A stretch of 64,000 bases of DNA from a virus (lineage: Duplodnaviria > Caudoviricetes), in IMG/VR virus record IMGVR_UViG_3300014590_000001, positions 1 through 64,000 of that record, one strand, 5' to 3'. Position 1 is the first letter of the stretch. Every line of letters begins with the position of its first letter. The translations under genes were made by a program, and so were the position numbers. Below are positions 41,847 to 53,400 of the stretch, in pieces. The notes beneath the pieces were generated by a model. The model had not been told where the DNA came from and searched no databases. It worked only from the letters and a program-made list of their open reading frames with translations.

Positions 41847-42353
41847 ATGAAAACGTTTCCGGAAGTGTTTGGTTCAAACACTTTTGCTACTCAGATTGAG
41901 CCTAACTCGTTAGCGATTATGGTCGCGGCGGCAGGTTTCAATCTTACAGGCGCACGAAATATCATTGAAGATGCTCACCAATACAATGATAGCCGTGCTG
42001 CTATTATCGCTCAGTCATTCGCTGATTGTGCTAACTTCGTTCAGCGTTGCTATCGTCGTAATCCAAACGCACGTATCGAAATTCTTTCAACGTGTGAAGG
42101 TGGCGCTCCGTGTCATGCGGTTGTTGTAAGTCATTCAGGCGAAGTCATGTTTGACCCGAAAGCAAGTTCATTTGTTTATCGCATTGCCGATTACAAATAC
42201 GGATACGCATTCGGTGAATCAGTTGTTGATTTCGTTTCTGTTGGCAGATGCTCTCTTCGTGGCGCAGTCGATGAATTAACCAAAGCAGGTTTTTGGGTTG
42301 ATCGCGCTTGGGATTTGAAAGATCCAAAACCACGGGCGAACGATTATCTATGA
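41847..42353 (+). CDS. Hypothetical protein, possible papain/transglutaminase-like fold
   Basis: AGGAG RBS and CTAATTT upstream; 'DCANF'...'HAVV'...'MFDP' Cys-His-Asp order. Confidence 0.45.
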   Translation: MKTFPEVFGSNTFATQIEPNSLAIMVAAAGFNLTGARNIIEDAHQYNDSRAAIIAQSFADCANFVQRCYRRNPNARIEILSTCEGGAPCHAVVVSHSGEVMFDPKASSFVYRIADYKYGYAFGESVVDFVSVGRCSLRGAVDELTKAGFWVDRAWDLKDPKPRANDYL

Positions 42354-42802
42354 AAGTTTATCTCACTTTGGACGAGGGCGACGGGCGCAAGCCTCGCAAA
42401 CAAAGTGGCGTTATTCCATATCGCTGGACTGATGAAGGTGAATTGGAAATTTGCATGATTCGCACTAAACACGCAAAGAATTGGGGATTGCCGAAAGGCG
42501 GTAAAGAACCTGATTTATCTTTGGAAGCGTCTGCTCTTAAAGAGGCGATGGAAGAAGCTGGTTTGCGTGGTGTCCCAGGCAAAAAAGTTGCGAAGATGGA
42601 ATACGTTAAAGGCAGTACCGGACGATTGCAGAAAGTTACGTGGTTCCTGATGGAAGTGCGTGAAGAACTTTCGAATTATCTGGAAGTGCATCAACGTGAA
42701 CGCCGTTGGTTTACCGCTGAAAAAGCGCTCAAGAAAATTGATCGCGATTGGAAACCAATTCTCGAAGCCGCAATCAAGAAACTTGAGAACGGTGCGACGT
42801 AA
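42350..42802 (+). CDS. Nudix hydrolase (Ap6A/Ap4A-like subfamily)
   Basis: 'SGVIPYR', 'WGLPKGG.E.......A.KEAMEEAG' Nudix box, 'RERRWF'. Confidence 0.9.
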   Translation: MKVYLTLDEGDGRKPRKQSGVIPYRWTDEGELEICMIRTKHAKNWGLPKGGKEPDLSLEASALKEAMEEAGLRGVPGKKVAKMEYVKGSTGRLQKVTWFLMEVREELSNYLEVHQRERRWFTAEKALKKIDRDWKPILEAAIKKLENGAT

Positions 42803-42815
42803 AAGAAGAATCCGT

Positions 42816-43277
42816 ATGCCGTCGGTTGAATTCGTAAGTTTATCTCGTGGAGAGACAACTAAGTTTTTAACGGATGCAATCGTCGGCTACTGGATTGAGA
42901 AGGGATACAGCAACCATGTTGAGTTTGGATTAATCAAGCATGGAAATTTACGCGCTGATGTTTGGTCACTGAATACGAAATGCCAAACAGTTATCTCGGA
43001 GGTTAAAAGTAGTTGGGCTGACTTTTCTTCGGATAAGAAATGGCATAATTACTTTGAGTATAGTCATAAATTTTATTTCGTTATTTCTGAACGTTTGTTT
43101 GAAACTCATGGTGATAGGATTCAGTTACGAATCAAAGGAAGCGGCGCAGGTATTATCGTGGTTAGCCCGATGGGAAATGCGAAAGTTCGAAAGAACGCTG
43201 TAGCCAGAGAAGCCTCAAACAAAACCCTTTCCCGTCTTCTAATCCATGCTGCGTGGCGTGGTGGTAAATTCAGGTAA
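42816..43277 (+). CDS. MmcB-like PD-(D/E)xK DNA repair endonuclease
   Basis: 'RADV', 'EVKSSWADFSSDKKW..Y..Y...FYF', 'GAGII'. Confidence 0.8.
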   Translation: MPSVEFVSLSRGETTKFLTDAIVGYWIEKGYSNHVEFGLIKHGNLRADVWSLNTKCQTVISEVKSSWADFSSDKKWHNYFEYSHKFYFVISERLFETHGDRIQLRIKGSGAGIIVVSPMGNAKVRKNAVAREASNKTLSRLLIHAAWRGGKFR

Positions 43278-43281
43278 TAGA

Positions 43282-43875
43282 ATGAAAAAATATATCGTCC
43301 TCGAAGGGAATGAAGGTGTGGGAAAATCCACTACCGCCGAAATTTTAGAAGCGTCTTTGCGTCTTCGTGATCAAAACGTAATTCGTGTGCGCGAACCTGG
43401 GGCAACTCCGCTCGCTGAAAAACTTCGCGACATTGCACTGCACGATAAAAATCCTCGTTCGCCGCTTACGGAAATGATGATCTTCCTTGCAGCAAGAAGT
43501 TCACTGATGGATTTTCTTTCAGAATGTCAGGCAGATATTGCTATCTCTGATCGCGCATGGCCTTCGACTTACGCACTGCAAGTTAAAGATGATAAAACGC
43601 AAGTGTTGTTTGATCGCACGGTGAATCTTCTGCGCCCCGATGTTCAGGTAGTTACTATTCTGCTTACCTGCACTTACGAAACTTATATTGCCCGTCGTGG
43701 CGATAAGCGCGAAGGTAGCGACAACATTGAAGCGCGTATGGTTGATGCTGAAACCTATGAAATGTATCAGGATCGTTATCGCAATCTTCCAGGCGGTTAT
43801 GATTTAGTTCTCAGCACTGACGATACAACTCCAACCGAAATTGTCGGGGAGATTTTGAAATGGCTCTCAGCATAA
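43282..43875 (+). CDS. tmk: Thymidylate kinase
   Basis: 'IVLEG.EGVGKST', 'REPG', 'FLAAR', 'SDR..PST.A.Q', 'RPD'. Confidence 0.92.
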   Translation: MKKYIVLEGNEGVGKSTTAEILEASLRLRDQNVIRVREPGATPLAEKLRDIALHDKNPRSPLTEMMIFLAARSSLMDFLSECQADIAISDRAWPSTYALQVKDDKTQVLFDRTVNLLRPDVQVVTILLTCTYETYIARRGDKREGSDNIEARMVDAETYEMYQDRYRNLPGGYDLVLSTDDTTPTEIVGEILKWLSA

Positions 43876-44300
43876 AATATTTCGGAAAGCTCACGAAAGA
43901 ACAGCAACAAAAAATTCTGGATAAGATCGAATCCGATAACGCCCACATCCCGCAATTCAGTGAGAAGTTTCGCACGATGGCGATGTTCTCTGTAAAAGAA
44001 GCAATGAAGCAGCGCTCTGTAGATCTTTTTAACTTTGATAGCCGTGGCAGACACATGGCGGTCGGTTACAAAATTCTGGTGCGCAACAATCACTTCTATG
44101 CGGAACCGTGGGTGTGGGTTGTTAAGGATGCTGATAAAAATATTGGCATTGAGATAACAACTCTCGATCCGGAAAGTCTGTATTTCGGAACTTTCATCCC
44201 AAACAAACTCTTCCAAGTTTACGGCGCAAACGCATACAACGTTATGCTCGGTAATCTTCGTCTATTGCAGCAACATTCGATGCGCAGAATTTCTATATAA
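43860..44300 (+). CDS. Hypothetical protein
   Basis: GGGAG RBS, overlaps the tmk stop. Confidence 0.5.
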   Translation: MALSIKYFGKLTKEQQQKILDKIESDNAHIPQFSEKFRTMAMFSVKEAMKQRSVDLFNFDSRGRHMAVGYKILVRNNHFYAEPWVWVVKDADKNIGIEITTLDPESLYFGTFIPNKLFQVYGANAYNVMLGNLRLLQQHSMRRISI

Positions 44301-44309
44301 GGAACTGTC

Positions 44310-46091
44310 ATGCCACTTCTTCCTAAACAATCTCGAATGATTTCGGATCTCGGAATTTTTCCGCGCTCGATTTCAAAAGTCGGTAATCATTTTATCGGAC
44401 ACAACAATCGCGCTGCCTATGTTTGGCACAAAGGCGATATTCAGGAAATTTGTCCGGGCGATATTGTCCACCACGAAAGTCTTAGCGCTTCAGTTGTTGA
44501 GCGTATTTCCGGCCTGAATTTTGCTGGCACTCGCGACGACAATAAAGCCGTGTTCATGTCTGTGAGTAACAGTCTCCATCTTGATCTGGTTCCTGAAAAA
44601 CAAGAATCCATTTCATACGATATGCAGACTGCTCTGCTTGCTGCGCAAGAGTATGCAAAGAACAATCAACGCATTCACGATATTCTGGATATGTGTTCAG
44701 AAAGTGCTGCGCCAAAGTATCTGAAGTACACCGGAAAGAAACTTGCTGTTGATGACGCTTCCGATGAATACGATCTGGAACTGGAGAAAGGCGACTTAAT
44801 CAAGCTGACCTATCTCAACAAAGACCGTTACGATCTGCGCCTGAAAGACAGTCCTCGCATTCAGTTTATTGTTCGCGGTCATGAAATTGCGCAGAACATT
44901 ATGGGTGCGCTGGAATTCACTGCGCCGTTCGGTCAAATCTCCGATCAGAAAACAAATAAGTTCGAATACGTTGGCGAAATCAGCAAGAAACTTCTCGCGC
45001 CAAATATTGCGAAAGGCACTGTTATTCTTATGTCGCGTAAGAAACATTACTTCGCACATAACCTCGCTGTGCCAATTGAAAGCTGGATGAATTCACAAAC
45101 TCTTCGCGAAGTTATGAATAGCATTAAAGCAGGTAAAGAGCCTGTGAGCTATGTGAAAGGTAAAGCGATCAAAACAAGCGCGAAGATTGCGCCGATGGGT
45201 CAGGCAGAACCTCTGCCGAAACTGGCTAATCCGAAAAAACTTTCGAGCGCAGGACAGCCGCGAAACGTTGCAACTGTTTACGGTGCATTCTTCCCTGTGT
45301 CGTCCAGTACGCCGAATCGTAGCCGTGTTGTTTTTGCTGACTCGATGGCAAAACTTCAGACGTTAGTGCGTGATATTATTTCGACGTACACTACTCCGGT
45401 AGACTACAGCCTGTTCACCACGTTAAGCACTGACGAAAACTATAAAGCTGCATCAAAGAATAAAGTTGTTATCAAAACAACTCCAATTCTTGCCAGCACG
45501 TATCACGTTACGCAGACAGTTAAAATGGCTCCTGCCGTGCTGCATCCAACTTTCGTTGAACCGAAAACTGGTGTGCGTCCTATCGACTTCCCTGTGTATG
45601 AAGGACAAGAGCAAAAGGTTATCGAATTCTTCCGTCGTCAAATCGAAGAAGGTTTCTTTAACACTGGCGTTCGTTTAGCACATCCGCAACCGGACACTGG
45701 AATTCGTTTTAGCGCTCCGCAGATTGATGACGTTATTTACGATCAGATTATCGGTGTTGCTCGTCGCATTACTTCTTTCTTGCTGCATGAAGGTGTGCCT
45801 TTGAAGAAAGGCGGCGTATCGTTAGCGCGTGGTAAGAAAGCCGCAGAGATTCGTTTTAATCTGCCACCTGTTACGGGCGAACAGAAAGCAAGTATCGAAA
45901 AACTTGTTTCGGATTACCCAACTCTGAATGCTCCTATCTATGAGACAATCAGACCGAAACAGCCAACGGTAGAAATTCTCAGTGTTTCTATCCACACTGG
46001 TAAAGTTACTGCTCGTGCGCAGCGTGGCCCAAGTCTGTTCGGCAATCCGTTCGAAGTTCTTTATTCGAATGTTAAGCGAAAAAATTTCTAA
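44310..46091 (+). CDS. Probable internal head protein with S-x-S-rich N-terminal region
   Basis: AAGGA RBS; ESLSA, MSVSN, ESISY, CSESA in the first ~135 aa, then the 'YLKYTG...EKGDLI' module. Confidence 0.55.
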   Translation: MPLLPKQSRMISDLGIFPRSISKVGNHFIGHNNRAAYVWHKGDIQEICPGDIVHHESLSASVVERISGLNFAGTRDDNKAVFMSVSNSLHLDLVPEKQESISYDMQTALLAAQEYAKNNQRIHDILDMCSESAAPKYLKYTGKKLAVDDASDEYDLELEKGDLIKLTYLNKDRYDLRLKDSPRIQFIVRGHEIAQNIMGALEFTAPFGQISDQKTNKFEYVGEISKKLLAPNIAKGTVILMSRKKHYFAHNLAVPIESWMNSQTLREVMNSIKAGKEPVSYVKGKAIKTSAKIAPMGQAEPLPKLANPKKLSSAGQPRNVATVYGAFFPVSSSTPNRSRVVFADSMAKLQTLVRDIISTYTTPVDYSLFTTLSTDENYKAASKNKVVIKTTPILASTYHVTQTVKMAPAVLHPTFVEPKTGVRPIDFPVYEGQEQKVIEFFRRQIEEGFFNTGVRLAHPQPDTGIRFSAPQIDDVIYDQIIGVARRITSFLLHEGVPLKKGGVSLARGKKAAEIRFNLPPVTGEQKASIEKLVSDYPTLNAPIYETIRPKQPTVEILSVSIHTGKVTARAQRGPSLFGNPFEVLYSNVKRKNF

Positions 46092-46095
46092 GTAA

Positions 46096-46107
46096 ATCTG
46101 TAAATAG
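46096..46107 (+). promoter_or_regulatory. Candidate promoter motif ATCTGTAAATAG
   Basis: Identical 12-mer at 47795-47806, each at the head of a structured non-coding block; ATCTGTAAAG variants at 46205 and 46649. Confidence 0.5.
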
Positions 46108-47330
46108 TAATTATAGGTAGAGCGGAAATTCTATGACTTCTTGTTTCCGTTCTACCATAGAACCCTAGCCAGTTGGATATAAAAACTTTCTGTGAAGAAA
46201 CGATATCTGTAAAGTGGGTAATAACACTGGCAGCCATTCCATGTATAAGGCTCACAAGCCGCTTCCTACCTACAGGGGAATGAGTTAATGCAATCCACCT
46301 CGCTCTGGCGATGCGTTAACTGTTAGCTGACAGCGCGAAAGAATGCCGTTTAAACTTACACTTTCACTGTGAGTTTAAACGGGGAATCTTTCAGAACTCC
46401 CTGTCAATATGACGACAAAGTTTGCAAATGTCTTGCTGCATTTTTCATAAACTATTTTCTACTCTAGCGGATTCGTAACGGGAAGTAGTTTAGCGAACTT
46501 TGGGAATACGATTTAGTGAGTAACATAACATCCGCAGAATGAAGATAGACCCGCCTTAGTCTAGGCTTCGTTCCCTAGTTTGTTTAGACCTGATTCAGTG
46601 GGGAAACGGGAAACGAACTTTGTATAGATTCCGTATAATCATTTTGAAATCTGTAAAGTGATTATACTGGATCACTGTGCTGTTCCGGTGTTCCGGTGGT
46701 GTTGTAGTTGTCGTTCATATCTGCGCCATTGTGTTGTGCTGACTAGCGGTTGGCGAAAGCACTTCACTTAAAGTTTTAAACATTCGCTGAAGTTATCGGT
46801 GTCTCAACCCCCGCAGACCGTGGATAGATTCCTGTTCAGAAAATTTATTTTTAGTTCTCGGATAAATTTTCCCAGCAGCCCTTGCTAGGCCACGTAGAGT
46901 AAGTAGTTTCAAACCTATTTGAAGTTGGGAACGGGGAAACGAAAACTCTTTAGTCAAAAGCTCTTACTGTTGCATGGCTTCTGTCAAAACAAAATCAGAT
47001 CTTCAATTCCATTATTGGATTCGAGTATCCCTAAGCGGTGACTTCCGTATTCGAATCTTGTTAGTAGGAAGTTTAAATGTGGGTGCCTTTAGGTTCCATA
47101 GGATACCGTTCACGGTAAACAAATAACAGCCGCAGACCAAAGATCATGACTGCAATTTATGTTCTCCATAGCATAACTTTTGCGATACTCCTATGAGGCT
47201 TTGTTTTGAAACTTTTTAGACCTGCTTCAGTTGGGAATCGGGAAGAAGTTTCAAATTGTCGGACGAGATTGGAAAGACAACTCGTATTACGTTTTCCTCT
47301 CACATTAGCGTAATACGGGATGACACCAAT
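46108..47330 (+). ncRNA. Large structured non-coding RNA/leader containing three tandem pseudoknotted units
   Basis: 1.25 kb with no credible ORF in a gene-dense genome; many long stems whose mismatches are G.U on the + strand; conserved CTA(A)GCGG, CCGCAGA, AGGC, A[G/A]ACCT and GT[T/G]GGGAA(N)CGGG repeated three times. Confidence 0.7.
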
Positions 47331-47343
47331 TTGAGGAAACATC

Positions 47344-47601
47344 ATGTCGGGAAAAGATTTGGAATTTCCAAAAGGCGCACAAGGCGTAGTGCGCAAAGTA
47401 AATCCATTGACAACGTTCTTCATGCCTGAACGTTATCGTGATAACCCAGCGAAAGCTAAAGTTGCAGCGCAGTTTCAAACTCTCGCGTATGCTCTTGACC
47501 GCGATATTGAAGACAGCGCAGAAAAGAGTACAGCGATTCGCAAACTGATTGAAGCGCAAGATTGTATTTTCCGCGCAATCGATCTTAATCCTGATTTCTA
47601 A
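47344..47601 (+). CDS. Acb2/Tad1-like helical-hairpin protein (candidate immune-signal sponge)
   Basis: GAGGAAA RBS; 85 aa; 'P..FF....','F..LA..L','EKSTAIRKLIEAQDC..RAI...PDF' resembles the Acb2-family C-terminal helix (recalled, not searched). Confidence 0.6.
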   Translation: MSGKDLEFPKGAQGVVRKVNPLTTFFMPERYRDNPAKAKVAAQFQTLAYALDRDIEDSAEKSTAIRKLIEAQDCIFRAIDLNPDF

Positions 47602-47602
47602 A

Positions 47603-47776
47603 ATGCGCGAACCGCTCGAATATATTGATGTTGTAGTTGATACTGAGCGTATGAACGAGGCAATTAAATCTCCTTCATATAGTTTTCCACGAAGTTTAAC
47701 TCGCGAAGAAGTTTTGCAGTTTCTCGATGGACGAGCGCCTGTAAAAATTCTTACGCAGGAGAATAAAAATGCGTGA
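47603..47776 (+). CDS. Small hypothetical protein (57 aa)
   Basis: ATG one base after the previous stop; MREPLEYIDVVVDTERMNEAIKSPSYSFPRSLTREEVLQFL. Confidence 0.55.
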   Translation: MREPLEYIDVVVDTERMNEAIKSPSYSFPRSLTREEVLQFLDGRAPVKILTQENKNA

Positions 47777-47806
47777 TTGGTTTTACGGCGGTTAATCTGT
47801 AAATAG

Positions 47807-48277
47807 AATTTGTGGTAACACAAATAGGCATAAGGAACTCTGAGAGTGAAAGAACTCTATCTTCTTATGTCGCTACTGATGTGCTTGTGGCAAGCGAGTA
47901 GATCAGGCATTGTAAAACAATGTGCGAGCACACCGGAAACGCTCGCGTCCAGCACTGCCGTGGTGTACGGCTATGCGCACGTTCGGGGGATGTGGGACAG
48001 CGACAAACACTTGCCAAGATGAAAATTTAAATTTGATTGCGGTACTGGCGGGTAACTCCGCTTATTCGGACAAGCAAAATTTCAGACGTGAGATTTTGTG
48101 CCGCCTCCAAATGGCGCGGCGATTCTGTCGGATGCAACACGGCGAACAACTGCTTTTCTTTGCCCAAGCTATATACCGATTGCTGCGCCGTTATTCTATA
48201 GGCTGCGCGTCAAACCTTTTAAAATCCGCATGAAAAATTTGATACGAAAACGGGTGGCCTTTGTGCTGCCCGTTTTT
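47807..48277 (+). ncRNA. Second structured non-coding RNA (~470 nt)
   Basis: Starts right after ATCTGTAAATAG, ends in a terminator; near-continuous series of hairpins; overlapping ORFs lack an RBS. Confidence 0.65.
48247..48277 (+). terminator. Rho-independent terminator
   Basis: AAAACGGGTGGC-ctttgt-GCTGCCCGTTTTT. Confidence 0.85.
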
Positions 48278-48317
48278 GTTTCTGCCACTAATTTAACCAA
48301 TAAGAAAGGAGAATAAA

Positions 48318-48608
48318 ATGGGCAAACCTGTCATTCGATTGGGCGCTGATTTAACTACAGGTCACAACGGTTATCCTCCGGTAGTGGCAACTGGCGCAAG
48401 TGGGAATGTTTTTGTGAATGGTAAGGGCGTTGTTCGTACTGGCGATCCTTATCAACCGCATAAAAAGAAAAAGAAACCGTCACACATAGGTCACGCTATT
48501 GGCGGTGCAACTGTATTCGTGAATGGTAAACCTGCACAACGCGCAGGTGATGCAAATGATTGTGGCGATACTGCTTCAAACGGATCGCAAAACGTAGGAT
48601 TTGGCTGA
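48318..48608 (+). CDS. PAAR-domain spike tip protein
   Basis: 'TTGH..YPP', 'NVFVNGK.VVR.GD....H', 'VFVNGKPAQR.GD...CG'. Confidence 0.92.
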   Translation: MGKPVIRLGADLTTGHNGYPPVVATGASGNVFVNGKGVVRTGDPYQPHKKKKKPSHIGHAIGGATVFVNGKPAQRAGDANDCGDTASNGSQNVGFG

Positions 48609-49021
48609 TGGCAATTATCTCTAAACGTGTTGATGTGCCAGCTAACGAAGCTGTCTATTCAGATATCAGTATGGATATCAAAATGGAATTGCGTGATACC
48701 GTTCAGGATATGGATGCTATCACTCAAAAGATTTTATTTATAATCGGCACTCGCAAAGGCTCCCGCAAATATCGTGAGAAGTTTGGCTCGGACGTGTATA
48801 GAGATTTATTCGAACCTTTCGACGATAGCACCGCAGGATGGATTGAGACTCATATTACGAACGCATTGGAAGATGTTGATAACGGTCTGACTGCCGATGT
48901 GACAGACGTTAAAGTATCCGTGTATCGTTCCGTGAATCAAACGTATGAGTGTTCTGTTATGTGGAAAGTTCCAAAACTTCTCGAAAAGAACTCCGTTAAT
49001 TTCGCCTTGAGGCCATTATGA
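48608..49021 (+). CDS. Baseplate wedge gp25/gpW-like protein
   Basis: 'YSDI', 'I..I..IIGTRKG.R..R..FGS.V...LFEP.D'. Confidence 0.85.
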   Translation: MAIISKRVDVPANEAVYSDISMDIKMELRDTVQDMDAITQKILFIIGTRKGSRKYREKFGSDVYRDLFEPFDDSTAGWIETHITNALEDVDNGLTADVTDVKVSVYRSVNQTYECSVMWKVPKLLEKNSVNFALRPL

Positions 49022-50481
49022 CAATTCTTAATACTTTCACGACACACGAAGAATTTGCGCAGGATATTTTGCGCCGTCTTGCAGATTCGACTTATTGGAC
49101 GGATCAGCAAGTCAGTAGCATGACCAGTTTGCTTGCGGATGCGCTCGGTGATTTGGGTATCACTAACAGCACCGCAACGTTGATTGCTGCGCGTGAAGCA
49201 TTTATTCGTTTGGCGCGTCGCACAAGTTCTATTTATGCTGGCGCTCGTTTTCTCGGTGTGGATATTCAGCGTAAATCTTACGGCACTGTAACCGCACGAA
49301 TCACAAATACAGGCCGCAACAAAATCACGTTGGATAAGTTCGAACCTATCAGCGTCGGATCTTATAGCGGTCTGTTGGGTGAGATTACTCAGTGGGAAGC
49401 AGGTGAAACGAAAGAAGTTAGTGTGATCATTGGTACGCGTTTTAAATTCACGAAGTACCTGACTGAAACCGAAGATTACATGACTGTAGATCTCGGCACT
49501 GACAATTTCGAAATCACCGACGATCTGGAAGTGTGGTTAGAAACTCCTACAGGCCAAAAGATTGTTTACGAACGTTTCGACAAATGTTTGTTTGAGGCGT
49601 ATGAGAATCAAAACATCTTCCTCGATATCACAAAAGATGATGGCGATGTAATGATTCAGTTTGGCGGCGAACGCTGGGGATCTATTCCACCTCTCGGATA
49701 TACTCTCAACGTTGCGGCAACTCGCGCATTAGGTGCAACCGTTAACACGGATTCAGTCGGTTTCAAAGTTGCTTCTGTTAACTACGGCGTGTTGCAAGGC
49801 AAAACAATTTCAAGTATTTCCGGCGCGTCTGATGAACCATCACCAGACTACTACAGAAAGTTTGCGCCTGTTCTCGGACGTGCGAAAGGTAAACTAATCC
49901 GCCACGACGAATGGAAAGCTGCTATCAGTTTGTATCCTGACGTTGCTGATGTTGTGATTATGTCGCAGCGTGATATTGCTCCAAACGATAAGGAATGGAT
50001 GGGCGTTATTCGCGTTTGTGTTTTACCAAAAAATACTTCTACGTGGGGCGGCATTAATCCTTCGCCTGTCTCTGCGCAGTGGAATAAATTCTTAGCATGG
50101 ATCAACGACAAGTATCGTTCTGAACTTGAAATCCAAACGTGGAATCCGGATAAACTCGCAGCCGATGTTATTATCGAAGTTGCGTTGTTTGCTGATGCTC
50201 CTGGAACTCGCCAATCAAACACCGATAAACTTTCTGCCGCAGTAATGAAACTTTTCGAGCGCAAATCTGGTTCTCTCGGTAAACGTCTTGCCTTGTCGGA
50301 TATTATCGACGCTGTAAAATATGACCACACCGATCCGGACGAACCTGTTAAGCGCACCGAAGTGGATTATCTGAATGTGCTTAGTCCGGTGCAAGATTTA
50401 ATCCCTAACAGCAAACTGGAATACGTTGCTCTGCGTAACTTGCAAATCAACGTGACGTACAGCGAAAGGAATATGTCATGA
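49018..50481 (+). CDS. Baseplate wedge gp6/gpJ-like protein
   Basis: 'REAF..LA.R.SS...A..LG', 'IQFG...G..P', 'ISGA.DE....YR..AP'. Confidence 0.85.
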   Translation: MTILNTFTTHEEFAQDILRRLADSTYWTDQQVSSMTSLLADALGDLGITNSTATLIAAREAFIRLARRTSSIYAGARFLGVDIQRKSYGTVTARITNTGRNKITLDKFEPISVGSYSGLLGEITQWEAGETKEVSVIIGTRFKFTKYLTETEDYMTVDLGTDNFEITDDLEVWLETPTGQKIVYERFDKCLFEAYENQNIFLDITKDDGDVMIQFGGERWGSIPPLGYTLNVAATRALGATVNTDSVGFKVASVNYGVLQGKTISSISGASDEPSPDYYRKFAPVLGRAKGKLIRHDEWKAAISLYPDVADVVIMSQRDIAPNDKEWMGVIRVCVLPKNTSTWGGINPSPVSAQWNKFLAWINDKYRSELEIQTWNPDKLAADVIIEVALFADAPGTRQSNTDKLSAAVMKLFERKSGSLGKRLALSDIIDAVKYDHTDPDEPVKRTEVDYLNVLSPVQDLIPNSKLEYVALRNLQINVTYSERNMS

Positions 50482-53400
50482 AGTCACAAACTTCTGATTT
50501 CTTCTTAGACTTTATTCAGGACAATCCGGCGCTTGGTGAATTGTTTGATATCATTGGTCAGCACAATGATGATCTCAACATTTCTACTATTCAGCAATTG
50601 GTTGATTTGCGCCGCGTAGATAAAAACAGCACAACGGAAGTGCTGGAAGAAAGTGCTCAACAATTGGGTATCAACGTAACGCGTGATATCATGAGTTTCC
50701 GTAGCGAAGTATTCAAAAAGATTTTTGATACGCTTCCGGAATACAGCGAAGTCAGCGGTACAAAAGATTGGTCTAAATATGTTGCGATGATTCTCGGTGC
50801 AAACTTCGAAAGTTATCGTCTGTATACTAATGACTATCAAAGTTTCGTTCCTACTCCGCTTGGAACAATGATCAAAGACGGCGGCAGTTGGTACAAAACA
50901 ACCCACGTCGATCTTGAAGTGGATGCGCACCTGATTAATAGCGGCCTTGACCTGACAATCACTCGCGAAAGTAAAGCGGATATTGTCGCTGCGCTGATTA
51001 ACGTCGGTATGACTGAAACAGAAGCCGAAACATGGCACCTGAATCATATCGGTTTTGATCCGGTCAACATCGATCCTTATCAGAAAGCTGCACGTAACGT
51101 CATGTTCTTCCGTCGTACTGCTCAACTGTTTTATCAGTGGGCACCGATTGAAGAAGTGTTGCACGGCGTGTACACAACAATCAACATTGCCGCAGAAATT
51201 TATTGTGGCGCTCATGCTGTTGTTGAAAACGTTCGCCGCAGTTATGTAGGTAAGCCTCTCGTCGAACAACTGCAATTTATTCAGCCTGATTTTATTCACG
51301 GCGGCGAAGAGATTACTTTCGGCGTGAATGTGATGTACAGCGACGGCAGCGCAATCACCGAAGAAGTTTACGTTGAAGACCATGAAATGATTGAAAGCCG
51401 CAACGGAAATAAAGTTGTGTTCCGTGAGCCTATGGCAATCAGCACGATTGATCTTACTGTAACGTACAACGAAACTTCTCAGACAATCAGTGTGCGATTG
51501 TTTCCTCTCGGCATTGAACCCGATCCGGATGAAATCGAAATTGCTGTTAAAACTCTTTACGGCAATAGCAGTTCGCAAATCACTGTTTACGGTTTGTATG
51601 CCAACGGACAGAGGCGAGATATTACTGCGAGCGGTTCACTGATTATGGAATCAACTCTCGGATCGTTTAATGGTTCGCGTTTGGTTCTGCCTTATGTTCC
51701 GGCTGATACTGAAATCGTTATCGGCGCAAAATATCAGGGCATCTTCGACCACACTGACCATCGAAATTTCGTGGTGAAGAAAAGTGAAATGGAACTTATT
51801 CCAGTTTCAATTAGTATCACAACGCCTGACACAATCGAACAGGGAACGGATACGGAATTACGCGCATTCGTAACTTACAACGATGATACAAGTCGCTTGG
51901 TTGACCCGCAGTATTTGAGCACCAGTGAACATACTGATATCGTAGAAAACATGTTGCGCAGTGATATTCTGCGACAAGATTTTCTTTCTTCAGTTGCCGC
52001 GCAGTTTACGGATAACGGCGCTACGGTAAGCACTACCAAAACAATTAAGTTTTTAGCTCCTGCAACGAAACTTGCTGATTTGAATATCGTGTTGCCGTCT
52101 GTAATTCAGGAGAATGATAACGTTCAGCCAAAAGCAGTTGCGCTTTACGTGAAAGCAGATGCGACTCAAGATCAAATTGATAATCGTGATCCGACTGTCA
52201 TAGTTGAAGAAATTGAAGTTCAAGCGGAGTGGACAAGTTCTGCCGATCCTAGCGCTGGCGTACTCAACATTGTTGATATGAGTCGTGAAACAGGAAAGTT
52301 TGTTGCACCGCTTATTAATGATGGGTACGAAACTTTCTCTATCAATGCCGGAATCGCTGAAGGTAGCACTATCAAAACCTTCTCAAAGATTTTCGATATC
52401 TACAGCACGATTTATGTACCTCGCATTCTTAATCTGCTGTCTGCTGGAAAACTTAATTCCGGTCAGTCGATGAATCTTCCGGTTTCGTGTGAGTGGAATA
52501 CAAAGCAAGTTGCTTATGCTGACGTGAAGATTTCAGTAGAATTTATTCCCTCTCCTTCGGCTCAAGCTGAAGCCTACAAGCGTATTGTAGCCTTGCAGGA
52601 AGAAGCGATTAAGAACGGTCAAGACCCTACTCAATTTGATCCGCACAATCCGGATTATAAACGATGGGTAACTCTGAATGTTACTGACAGTGCTCAGTCC
52701 ATTGAAGATCCGTTCAATGAAGTTACGGCAAAAATGAAGCAACTGTATTTCAGAGGTGACTTGCATGGAAGTGCAAAACTCACAATTGAATATACGTATG
52801 GAAACACTACGATTGAAGACACTCGCGAAATTGTTTTGATTCCAATTCGCAGTCTGGTGAGTAGCGTTGAAATTGAATGCTATGATGTGCTGTTTGAAAA
52901 GTCGCGTACCTTTGCCCGTCTATTTGCAACTTACGAGGACGGATCTCAAGAATATGTTCAGGCTGCAAACTGGTCGGCATCGTGGCCAGGACAAGACGAA
53001 GACGATTATGAACAAATCAAGTTTATGCCGTCTACGTACAGCGGTATGAATGTTGTTGAAATTCTTGAAGGGAAAACTCCAACAACGTTTGCTCAATTCA
53101 AGGCGATGGAAGCTGCAAAACTTCCAATGCTGATTAACATCGGCTCGCTCAACGAATTAAACACAACGTTCTTTGATGGCGCTATTGTTCAGGTCAACAA
53201 GTTGGAAGTTGACAGCTACGCAAGTTTGAATGCTCGGTTCTATCGTACCGAAACTTCTCTGCCTGTTATGCTGCGTATTCCCGATCCGCAAAGTATCAAT
53301 ACGATTCTTTCTGCTCGTATTGATGGATCAACCTCTATCAGTGCTGAAGTTCAATCCGAATCGTATGCGCTCGTATGTACTTTTGAAATGCCTGGGGTTG

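Follow-up and report, generated by a model that had tools for sequence, protein, structure and literature searches.

In the jumbo-phage genome recorded in IMG/VR as IMGVR_UViG_3300014590_000001, an island at positions 46092-48277 carries a tandem array of structured RNAs, a few small genes, and a second structured RNA that contains the open reading frame (ORF) of a hydrophobic peptide. The window that was analysed is the first 64 kb of this 256,657-bp record, which has direct terminal repeats, and unless another strand or record is named, all positions are those of the window and its + strand. It is very likely that the island represents a new family of tandem structured RNAs together with a structured peptide mRNA, preceded by promoter-type boxes of the replication class and conserved across a clade of jumbo phages whose hosts are plant-associated enterobacteria. 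The explanation favoured here goes beyond this anatomy and, taken as a whole, has about an even chance of being right: the RNA parts would be the conserved core of the island, with the tandem modules serving as a trans-acting decoy or scaffold, the peptide mRNA being masked, and the sponge-like protein that is encoded between them being independent of the RNAs.

The genes of the window all lie on the + strand and are tightly packed, and the two longest ORF-free stretches in the 64 kb are found in the island, at 46092-47343 (1252 nucleotides, nt) and 47777-48317 (541 nt), the next gap being about 296 nt long. A first reading of the DNA without database searches, referred to here as the original prediction, had noted that these stretches bracket two tiny genes, 47344-47601 (85 amino acids, aa; the acb2-like gene in the following) and 47603-47776 (57 aa), and that both open with ATCTGTAAATAG, which is indeed present at 46096-46107 and 47795-47806. 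Also the proposed layout of promoter, RNA array, structured leader, small protein, 57-aa ORF, promoter, RNA and terminator is essentially right, and that the RNAs are real, structured and transcribed is borne out by covariation, folding z scores and deep contigs in RNA-type libraries. The second RNA had been taken as non-coding, which does not fully hold, as it contains a conserved ORF for a hydrophobic membrane peptide. This 58-codon ORF (47846-48022) had been overlooked, as had a micro-ORF at 47769-47795 and promoter-type boxes at 46205 and 46649. Two other ORFs in this part, of 103 aa (47922-48233) and 72 aa (48098-48316), were rejected as spurious, because they suffer indels that are not multiples of three and their frames are lost in relatives.

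The upstream stretch consists in the window of three modules of about 300 nt, with the repeat core UUUAGACCUGNUUCAGUGGGGAAACGGGAA at 46583, 46908 and 47215. Behind the first ATCTGTAAATAG box, which is kept at the island start in all relatives, folding indicates a 5' hairpin GGUAGAGCGGAAA...UUUCCGUUCUACC (46116-46156), and the Dickeya solani phage JA29 has at this position GGCAAGGCGG...CCGCCUUGUC, which are other letters that form the same hairpin. RNA unit 1 (46205-46623) has a box ATCTGTAAAGTG at 46205, a 5' box AACATCCGCAGA at 46527 and a terminal hairpin at 46577-46619; module 2 (46649-46948) likewise has ATCTGTAAAGTG at 46649, a 5' box AACCCCCGCAGACC at 46806 and a terminal hairpin at 46902-46944; and module 3 (46949-47255) has a 5' box AACAGCCGCAGACC at 47125 and a terminal hairpin at 47209-47251. 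The copy number of the repeat varies, with two copies in JA29 and one in phage JA13, and the islands range from one to three modules.

The terminal hairpin was aligned in 19 distinct gapless copies from the window, the JA phages, metagenome contigs, Yoloswag, pEa_SNUABM_5 and Yersinia phage fHe-Yen9-02. It is built of a closing stem, an AGA bulge, the pairing CCUG/CGGG, an inner stem of 3-4 bp and the hexaloop AGUGGG. Pairing is found in 87.9% of the cells of the alignment as opposed to 69.6% after shuffling, the covariation score is 0.515 as opposed to 0.19, slid controls are all far lower, and each pair of the closing stem changes on both sides. An invariant U-G pair assigns the RNA to the + strand. 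In whole-genome scans, the matches of a covariance model of the hairpin, R1, are confined to the island, with three in the genome of the window (45.6 bits for module 2 and 63.8 bits for module 3) and two each in Yoloswag, SNUABM_5 and fHe-Yen9-02, in the latter one per end of the linear record. The record of this Yersinia phage (L011, OR620964.1) is linearised inside the island, and its module hairpins are at 84-134 and 248492-248542. The R1 scan of the genome of phage AD1 gave no copy, and a divergent motif was later recognised by eye. This is the Alexandravirus type of the hairpin, which has the core AGUGAUGUUGGGCGA and closing stems that covary as well, and in AD1 and Alexandra, both of which were scanned whole, it occurs only in the island, save one match with two mismatches elsewhere in Alexandra.

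The modules are structured also outside of this hairpin. Module 3, aligned in six relatives, has a multi-helix fold of 71 pairs, of which 95% are paired in the alignment, with 14 compensatory pairs as opposed to a shuffle mean of 7.7. The pairings in the modules include those of the box AAC-NN-CCGC with an upstream GYAGGAAGUU and of CAAAGA with AGGCUUUG. As the indels are not multiples of three and the comparison of relatives revealed no conserved ORF within the modules, these are regarded as non-coding. Rfam covariance models had no match in the 64-kb window at their gathering thresholds, and at E values up to 10 they gave in 45900-48500 only chance-level matches far under the cut-offs; according to ARAGORN, tRNA and tmRNA are both absent. 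A blastn search of the island DNA against E. coli genomes, a set that excludes the actual host genus, gave no match and thus no DNA-level evidence for mimicry of an E. coli-like host RNA. A degenerate hairpin pattern recovered Yoloswag, SNUABM_5 and one further IMG/VR fragment of 65 kb. The 20 bacterial contigs that also match this pattern were rejected as homologues, since about 17 are expected by chance, as estimated from the information content of the pattern; 13 of the 18 bacterial matches that were scored consist of the core alone (about 21 bits), with the closing stem missing. Fourteen of the contigs are from metagenome-assembled genomes of Oscillospiraceae and match the hairpin-core pattern exactly, in most cases with the closing stem missing, which is probably one conserved, unrelated sequence and a chance match.

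The second structured RNA is a transcript of about 476 nt (47810-48285) that comprises a 5' domain, a 3' domain and a terminator. Its minimum free energy (MFE) is -169 kcal/mol (z -4.48), it is 82-87% identical to the sequences of the JA phages, as compared to 69-78% for the flanking structural genes, and its indels are not multiples of three. Searched with a model of the 5' domain, SNUABM_5 and Yoloswag match over the full length, with 37 and 25 bits, respectively, and in the alignment fitted to this model 96.5% of the cells are paired as opposed to 83.1% when shuffled and 34-52% when slid, with 29 compensatory pairs where 12.4 are expected. Helix 1 of this domain, in which the Shine-Dalgarno sequence of the hydrophobic ORF is held, is paired in all sequences and shows four compensatory pairs. 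The 3' domain is absent in the Alexandraviruses, as judged by distance. At the end of the transcript is an intrinsic terminator (48246-48283, AAAACGGGUGGC/GCUGCCCGUUUU and a U run) that has the expected properties, namely a stem of 12-15 bp (by eye and in the MFE fold) and a 6-nt loop, followed by UUUUUGUUU; among the Salmond-type relatives it is invariant, and in the five Alexandraviruses that were examined it can still be recognised.

Inside the 5' domain, the hydrophobic ORF (47846-48022) has 58 codons, a GTG start and the Shine-Dalgarno sequence AAGGA within helix 1. It is open in 13 of 13 genomes from four genera, at lengths of 47-64 codons, and the Kyte-Doolittle value of the encoded N-terminus is 2.85-3.29 in three genera and weaker in the window (1.74). 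The Shine-Dalgarno sequence is good in three genomes that were checked (Yoloswag, AD1 and the window) and weaker in SNUABM_5, and in SNUABM_36 the ORF has an in-frame deletion of 15 nt. Ratios of non-synonymous to synonymous changes (pN/pS) are 0.72, 0.58 and 0.81 in three groups, as opposed to 0.83-1.85 out of frame. Pfam searches with six orthologous peptides at E values up to 1 gave nothing beyond one chance-level match (ETRAMP, E 0.36), and in the ESM Atlas there was nothing usable for the 58-aa peptide. On balance, the downstream RNA is probably an mRNA that encodes a small membrane peptide and whose translation is masked. On the minus strand of this region, a sigma-70-like site (48222-48193) and a terminator-like hairpin (47946-47924) might produce an antisense RNA some 270 nt long, overlapping the 3' domain and the last part of the hydrophobic ORF, and the + strand letters under its -10 are invariant in relatives. 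An antisense RNA gene was nevertheless rejected, as the number of promoter-like sites on the minus strand, four, equals the 4.0 expected from shuffles.

The box in front of the RNAs is shared with replication genes. In the window, ATCTGTAAA occurs in four copies that are all within the island, as opposed to 0.92 expected, and 0 of 100 shuffles reached four. Genome-wide, there are 21 copies in 256.7 kb, the strand of which matches the local gene direction, and 11 of the 17 copies outside of the island sit 34-56 nt upstream of an ORF on the same strand. The genes behind the box encode, among others, a DnaG-type primase, a clamp-loader subunit, a DprA/SLOG protein and a family A DNA polymerase (PolA). 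Examples of the sites outside of the island are 199843, 214234, 228423 and 244738 (whole-genome coordinates), and there are 13 more. Judged by its position, ATCTGTAAA is probably a replication-class (early or middle) promoter of this phage clade, and since this box also precedes replication genes, transcription of the island would probably be early or middle despite its location amid late genes. The second ATCTGTAAATAG box, that of the downstream transcript (47795-47806), is missing in two close metagenomic relatives, L012 and L017: the TCTGTAAA box before the downstream RNA is gone there, and GGTTAATTGAATTTG is found instead (4476-4500 in L012, 680-705 in L017). Due to this deletion of the internal box, the downstream RNA of these two relatives must arise by read-through from the small ORFs.

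A different motif, CTAATTT, had been described in the original prediction as preceding structural genes. This holds as a positional pattern, since five + strand copies (12337, 28963, 41810, 48288 and 56181) are all 30-37 nt before ORF starts (12373, 28995, 41847, 48318 and 56211), but not in the sense of an enriched word, as six copies were found where 11.6 are expected. The motif is a candidate late-promoter element of structural genes, and its copy at 48288-48294 is 30 nt upstream of the PAAR gene that flanks the island.

Evidence for expression comes from Logan contigs of four RNA-type libraries, from runs selected for containing the island, which were mapped to 42000-52000. In the metatranscriptome X18, contigs of the island have depths of 149, 278 and 120, as compared to 4-12 on the flanking genes, which is a 10-50x difference. 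Library X1, which is listed as 'RNA?' and whose RNA status is therefore a guess, has contigs in the island at 46127-46348, 46390-46625, 46677-47261, 47388-47588 and 47819-48252, and outside of it only one short contig in the 593-aa gene upstream (45833-46028). The X1 contigs of the island begin 24-31 nt after boxes and stop at module hairpins, with 46390-46625 stopping at the hairpin of unit 1 and 46677-47261 beginning about 25 nt behind the box of module 2. In X9, a contig at 46689-47136 has an Illumina adapter at both ends. From these data, the island RNAs look like being among the most abundant transcripts of the region.

The island itself was inspected in 12 annotated or metagenomic relatives and one IMG/VR fragment, the closest cultured relatives being the Dickeya solani jumbo phages JA11, JA13, JA29 and JA33 (Salmondvirus). 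It is found at the identical site in Salmondvirus, Yoloswagvirus, Rivsvirus, Alexandravirus, fHe-Yen9-02 and the IMG/VR fragment. On the left, this site is flanked by the gene of a 593-aa protein with a KMPT-N domain (44310-46091), which is present in 57 records that include Erwinia and Dickeya biocontrol candidates, and on the right by the PAAR gene (48318-48608), followed by a gp25-like gene and wedge genes. A search of IMG/VR with the 593-aa protein for related loci gave none, and exact DNA patterns found the JA genomes only. In Salmondvirus, Yoloswagvirus and Rivsvirus, the acb2-like gene and varying extra ORFs separate the modules from the downstream RNA. In five Alexandraviruses, the island consists of a promoter box, two modules, the hydrophobic ORF and the terminator, and there is no acb2-like gene in it; its homologue is encoded at about 17-20 kb, some 65 kb off the island. 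Because the RNAs and the masked ORF are kept in the Alexandraviruses without that gene, they are regarded as the conserved core. The small ORFs, among them the acb2-like gene and the 57-aa ORF, are present between the RNA parts only in some lineages and are regarded as cargo.

In phages of the Alexandra, Yoloswag, Rivs and Salmond types, the island is a conserved accessory region whose site, flanked by the 593-aa KMPT-N gene and the PAAR/gp25 baseplate operon, is fixed. According to the favoured explanation, its modules would be stable, abundant and trans-acting RNAs that are made during host takeover. A decoy or scaffold that binds protein multivalently would agree with the invariant single-stranded elements (AGACC and the G-rich loop) and with the changing number of copies, and such a decoy mechanism, considered alone, is possible, though on the unlikely side. 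The downstream RNA would be a silenced mRNA for a membrane peptide that requires an activating event, and the 85-aa protein would probably be a helical-hairpin sponge of the Acb2 type that forms dimers or oligomers and functions independently of the RNAs. It is rather doubtful that the modules represent a new class of RNA effectors, which as a multivalent, highly expressed decoy or scaffold titrate a host RNA-binding protein or an immune sensor, or form a higher-order RNA particle, in the replication phase and alongside a gated membrane peptide that the companion RNA encodes; if this were true, they would constitute an RNA-centred takeover or anti-defence device across at least four jumbo-phage genera.

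Several aspects weigh against this explanation. The function is deduced from the anatomy alone, and in the Alexandraviruses the modules and the ORF are on what looks like a single transcription unit, to which a leader that functions in cis fits as well as an RNA that functions in trans. The pair counts of the 5' domain are biased upward because the alignment was fitted to the model, and the 3' domain is nearly invariant in the available set and with two compensatory pairs too conserved for a covariation signal. As to the peptide, the constraint at the protein level is weak and the frame might be open for RNA reasons alone; the conserved hairpin GCCGUGGYGURCGGC falls into one frame in the window and into another in AD1, which indicates that selection is at least partly on the RNA. 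Finally, the contigs give neither strand nor true ends nor reliable levels, and the two most informative runs, X1 and X18, belong to a single study.

The main rival is a regulatory RNA that functions in cis or locally and gates the membrane peptide, so that promoter, modules, Shine-Dalgarno-occluded ORF and terminator would form an ancestral gated toxin, holin or exclusion cassette into which the other ORFs were inserted later. This is unlikely, but it is what the five Alexandraviruses would suggest, in which one canonical box, two modules, the ORF and the terminator are in a row with no genes between them. It also agrees with the compensatory changes of the Shine-Dalgarno helix in three genera (the helix was seen by eye in AD1), with an ORF that is open and has a hydrophobic N-terminus in all 13 genomes, and with the read-through that the deletion of the internal box entails in L012 and L017. 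In Salmond-type phages, however, the modules are up to about 550 nt and two to three ORFs away from the hydrophobic ORF, and most of these phages have the internal box; the X1 contigs stop at the module hairpins, and the modules vary from one to three copies while the downstream RNA is unchanged. Conserved complementarity of the modules to the initiation region of the ORF was not found by inspection, and conserved pairing of module loops with the downstream RNA was not seen by eye, without a systematic search having been carried out. Also, the peptide has no Pfam match, and this includes the Hok and holin families.

Below this rival ranks the single module of the original prediction, in which the RNAs sense or sponge a second messenger or a defence protein, and/or control a sponge of the Acb2/Tad1 type. 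In the phages of the Salmond, Yoloswag and Rivs types, the RNAs do adjoin the acb2-like gene, the timing of a replication-class promoter would suit anti-defence genes, and the gene is preceded by a conserved leader of two hairpins. This leader (47256-47343) has the hairpins UUGUC/GACAA and CUCGUAUUACG/CGUAAUACGGG, followed by the Shine-Dalgarno sequence GAGGAA, and both stems are kept in relatives with compensatory changes. The leader had been proposed to be a switch, but the anti-Shine-Dalgarno loop UUUCCUC is found only in the window and L017 and is thus not conserved, and there is no match to a riboswitch or aptamer family in Rfam. The modules have promoter boxes of their own and ends that are delimited by hairpins, so that they are not simply a leader. 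Independent assortment of RNAs and gene in relatives had been named in the original prediction as one half of what would refute it, and this half is what the Alexandraviruses present, as they keep the RNAs and have the acb2-like homologue far from the island. The protein family is widespread beyond the clade, and none of those other phages matched the island DNA. Together with the unproven membership of the protein in the Acb2 family, this makes the single module quite improbable.

The 85-aa protein (47344-47601) has the signature FF..HL...LA..L...LPDSAEKSAGLRKLLEAKDC.VRA of a family that was collected in 24 diverse representatives, matches three PHROGs, and is also found in phages of Vibrio, Mycobacterium, Alteromonas and Rhodobacter. 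That it is Acb2/Tad1-like had been claimed in the original prediction, and of this the predicted hairpin of two antiparallel helices stands, whereas the similarity is below every sequence threshold tested. The Pfam family PF24729 (Acb2/Tad1 hairpin) matches with 15.6 bits and E 0.019, under its gathering score of 27 (15.5 bits in a six-frame search of the genome), and there are weak matches in 5 of 23 family members, the best with E 0.011. With phmmer and a profile of 23 sequences, no Acb2 or Tad1 chain was found in the PDB at E values up to 10, NCBIfam gave chance matches only, and an hhalign comparison with T4 Vs.4 gave a probability of 0.45% over 22 columns of the C-terminal helix only. The C-terminal motif ..EKS.A.RKL.EA....RA resembles TIAKTKLKEASMWACRA of T4 Vs.4.

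An AlphaFold2 (AF2) model of the protein is a helical hairpin with antiparallel helices 35-54 and 59-81 and a mean predicted local distance difference test (pLDDT) value of 86.8. With this model, Foldseek found nothing in the PDB at E below 2, and in a VIA-wide comparison Acb2_43 (9PTQ_A) was matched with Z 6.0 and a root-mean-square deviation (rmsd) of 1.7 A over 53 residues at 19% identity, which is rank 31 among helical hairpins with Z 5.8-7.1. Among the 50 VIA matches listed, Acb2_43 has the lowest rmsd and the equal-highest identity. Acb2 protomers have two long antiparallel helices and assemble into hexamers (bioRxiv 10.1101/2025.08.24.671296). For the 85-aa protein, a prediction with three copies gave a symmetric dimer via residues 40-85, with a score of 0.74 as opposed to 0.12 for the best control, a contact agreement between runs of at least 93% and a partner pLDDT of at least 75. 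Of the solved homo-pairs, 20 of 30 reached the mark for self-association, and of the single chains 1 of 23; these are rough counts, as the calibration was done with two copies and the job with three copies and its own alignment. The chances that the protein belongs to the Acb2/Tad1 family are about evenly balanced.

It is hardly credible that the stretches are not functional RNAs but remnants of decaying genes at a recombination hot spot, or else an element of the DNA, for example an origin of replication or a packaging site. In favour of this are the gene content that differs by genus, the varying module number, the linearisation of the Yersinia phage record within the island and the T4 oriF, which adjoins gene 25. 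Against it, the compensatory and G-U changes work only as + strand RNA, the downstream RNA is better conserved than the flanking structural genes, an intrinsic terminator, promoter boxes and high contig depth in RNA libraries are present, and the terminal repeats of the window's record lie elsewhere; the position of these repeats and the RNA-strand specificity of the structure are why a genome end or origin was rejected as the main reading.

Some small ORFs in and next to the island remain to be mentioned. The 57-aa ORF (47603-47776) is present in L012, L013 and L017, has likely homologues of 64 aa in Yoloswag and of 55 aa in SNUABM_5 and a weak match to phrog_17259, and is lost in JA29 and JA13. 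The micro-ORF at 47769-47795 encodes MRDWFYGG*, has the strong Shine-Dalgarno sequence AGGAGAA, and overlaps with its stop codon the next promoter box. As M(N/R)DWF(Y/F)(GG/DD)*, with 8-10 codons and synonymous changes, it is found in phages of the Salmond, Yoloswag and Rivs types (L001 5390-5416, L008 7777-7803, L009 8089-8121), and its product may be a leader or regulatory peptide. An ORF of 136-141 aa is located directly upstream of the acb2-like gene in Yoloswag (L008 6985-7395) and SNUABM_5 (L009 7031-7456), which it overlaps by 8 nt; Pfam gave no match for this ORF, and the window lacks it. Between the terminator and the PAAR gene, Yoloswag, SNUABM_5 and the Alexandraviruses AD1 and 2910A have a conserved ORF of 40-42 aa (MTRL..L.RGEKP....PAKGPKIP...; L008 8286-8414, L009 8589-8714, L010 7595-7720, L022 6290-6412), which is absent from the window and the JA phages. 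Outside of the window, the genome has other ORF-poor gaps of 400-600 nt, at 68696-69298, 104768-105202, 124438-124924, 129148-129611 and 207249-207666 (whole-genome coordinates).

In GenBank, the more than 2 kb of the island amid the late genes of these jumbo phages are left blank or filled with spurious 'hypothetical proteins', and an earlier description was found neither in the paper on the JA phages (PMC6143709) nor in the other literature searched. The island adds covariation-supported RNAs outside of any Rfam family, the function of which is open to test, as JA11, JA29, Yoloswag and Alexandra can be cultured and have tractable hosts. Separating the acb2-like gene from the RNAs averts a wrong annotation as 'RNA plus sponge', and with the conserved masked membrane peptide and the micro-ORF of eight codons, further unannotated genes are flagged.

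To our knowledge, large structured phage RNAs are few, and there is none with a known mechanism. The RNAs GOLLD and ROOL (PMC12286853) are similar to those of the island in that they comprise several hundred nt with many covarying helices, are non-coding and carried by phages, and are abundant in infection. They differ from them in that their Rfam models do not match the island, which has tandem modules of about 300 nt in variable copy number and is restricted to one clade of enterobacterial jumbo phages, and there is no evidence for homo-oligomeric cages in the case of the island RNAs. Tandem RNA repeats carried by phages are also known as ToxI or pseudo-ToxI and as Racr decoys, but these repeats have 28-36 nt and mimic host arrays, whereas the units of the island have about 300 nt and neither a cognate nuclease nor a Cas protein is implicated.

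The 85-aa protein shares with the anti-CBASS/anti-Thoeris sponges of the Acb2 family (T4 Vs.4, PaMx33 Acb2 8H2J, Acb2_43 9PTQ) that it is a small phage protein with two antiparallel helices and a predicted self-association via the hairpin, and it differs in being under the Pfam cut-off, in having no profile match to Acb2/Tad1 chains of the PDB, and in the VIA rank of Acb2_43 among generic hairpins. The downstream RNA has no sequence or Pfam similarity to type I toxins of the hok/sok kind, a minus-strand sigma-70-like site only at chance level and a weak protein constraint, but like hok/sok-like toxin mRNAs and structured holin mRNAs, it would encode a single-helix peptide of 50-60 codons on a folded mRNA of about 470 nt with a sequestered Shine-Dalgarno sequence, and like in the case of hok/sok, there is a short upstream ORF in three genera of the island. 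For the modules, the small RNAs of the CsrB/RsmZ type that sponge a protein are a resemblance of logic only, as the island units are ten times larger and far more structured and expose AGACC and AGUGGG instead of the GGA of CsrA. With repeated hairpins, an invariant exposed motif, variable copies and high abundance, these sponging RNAs nevertheless provide the model for the decoy function that the modules may have.

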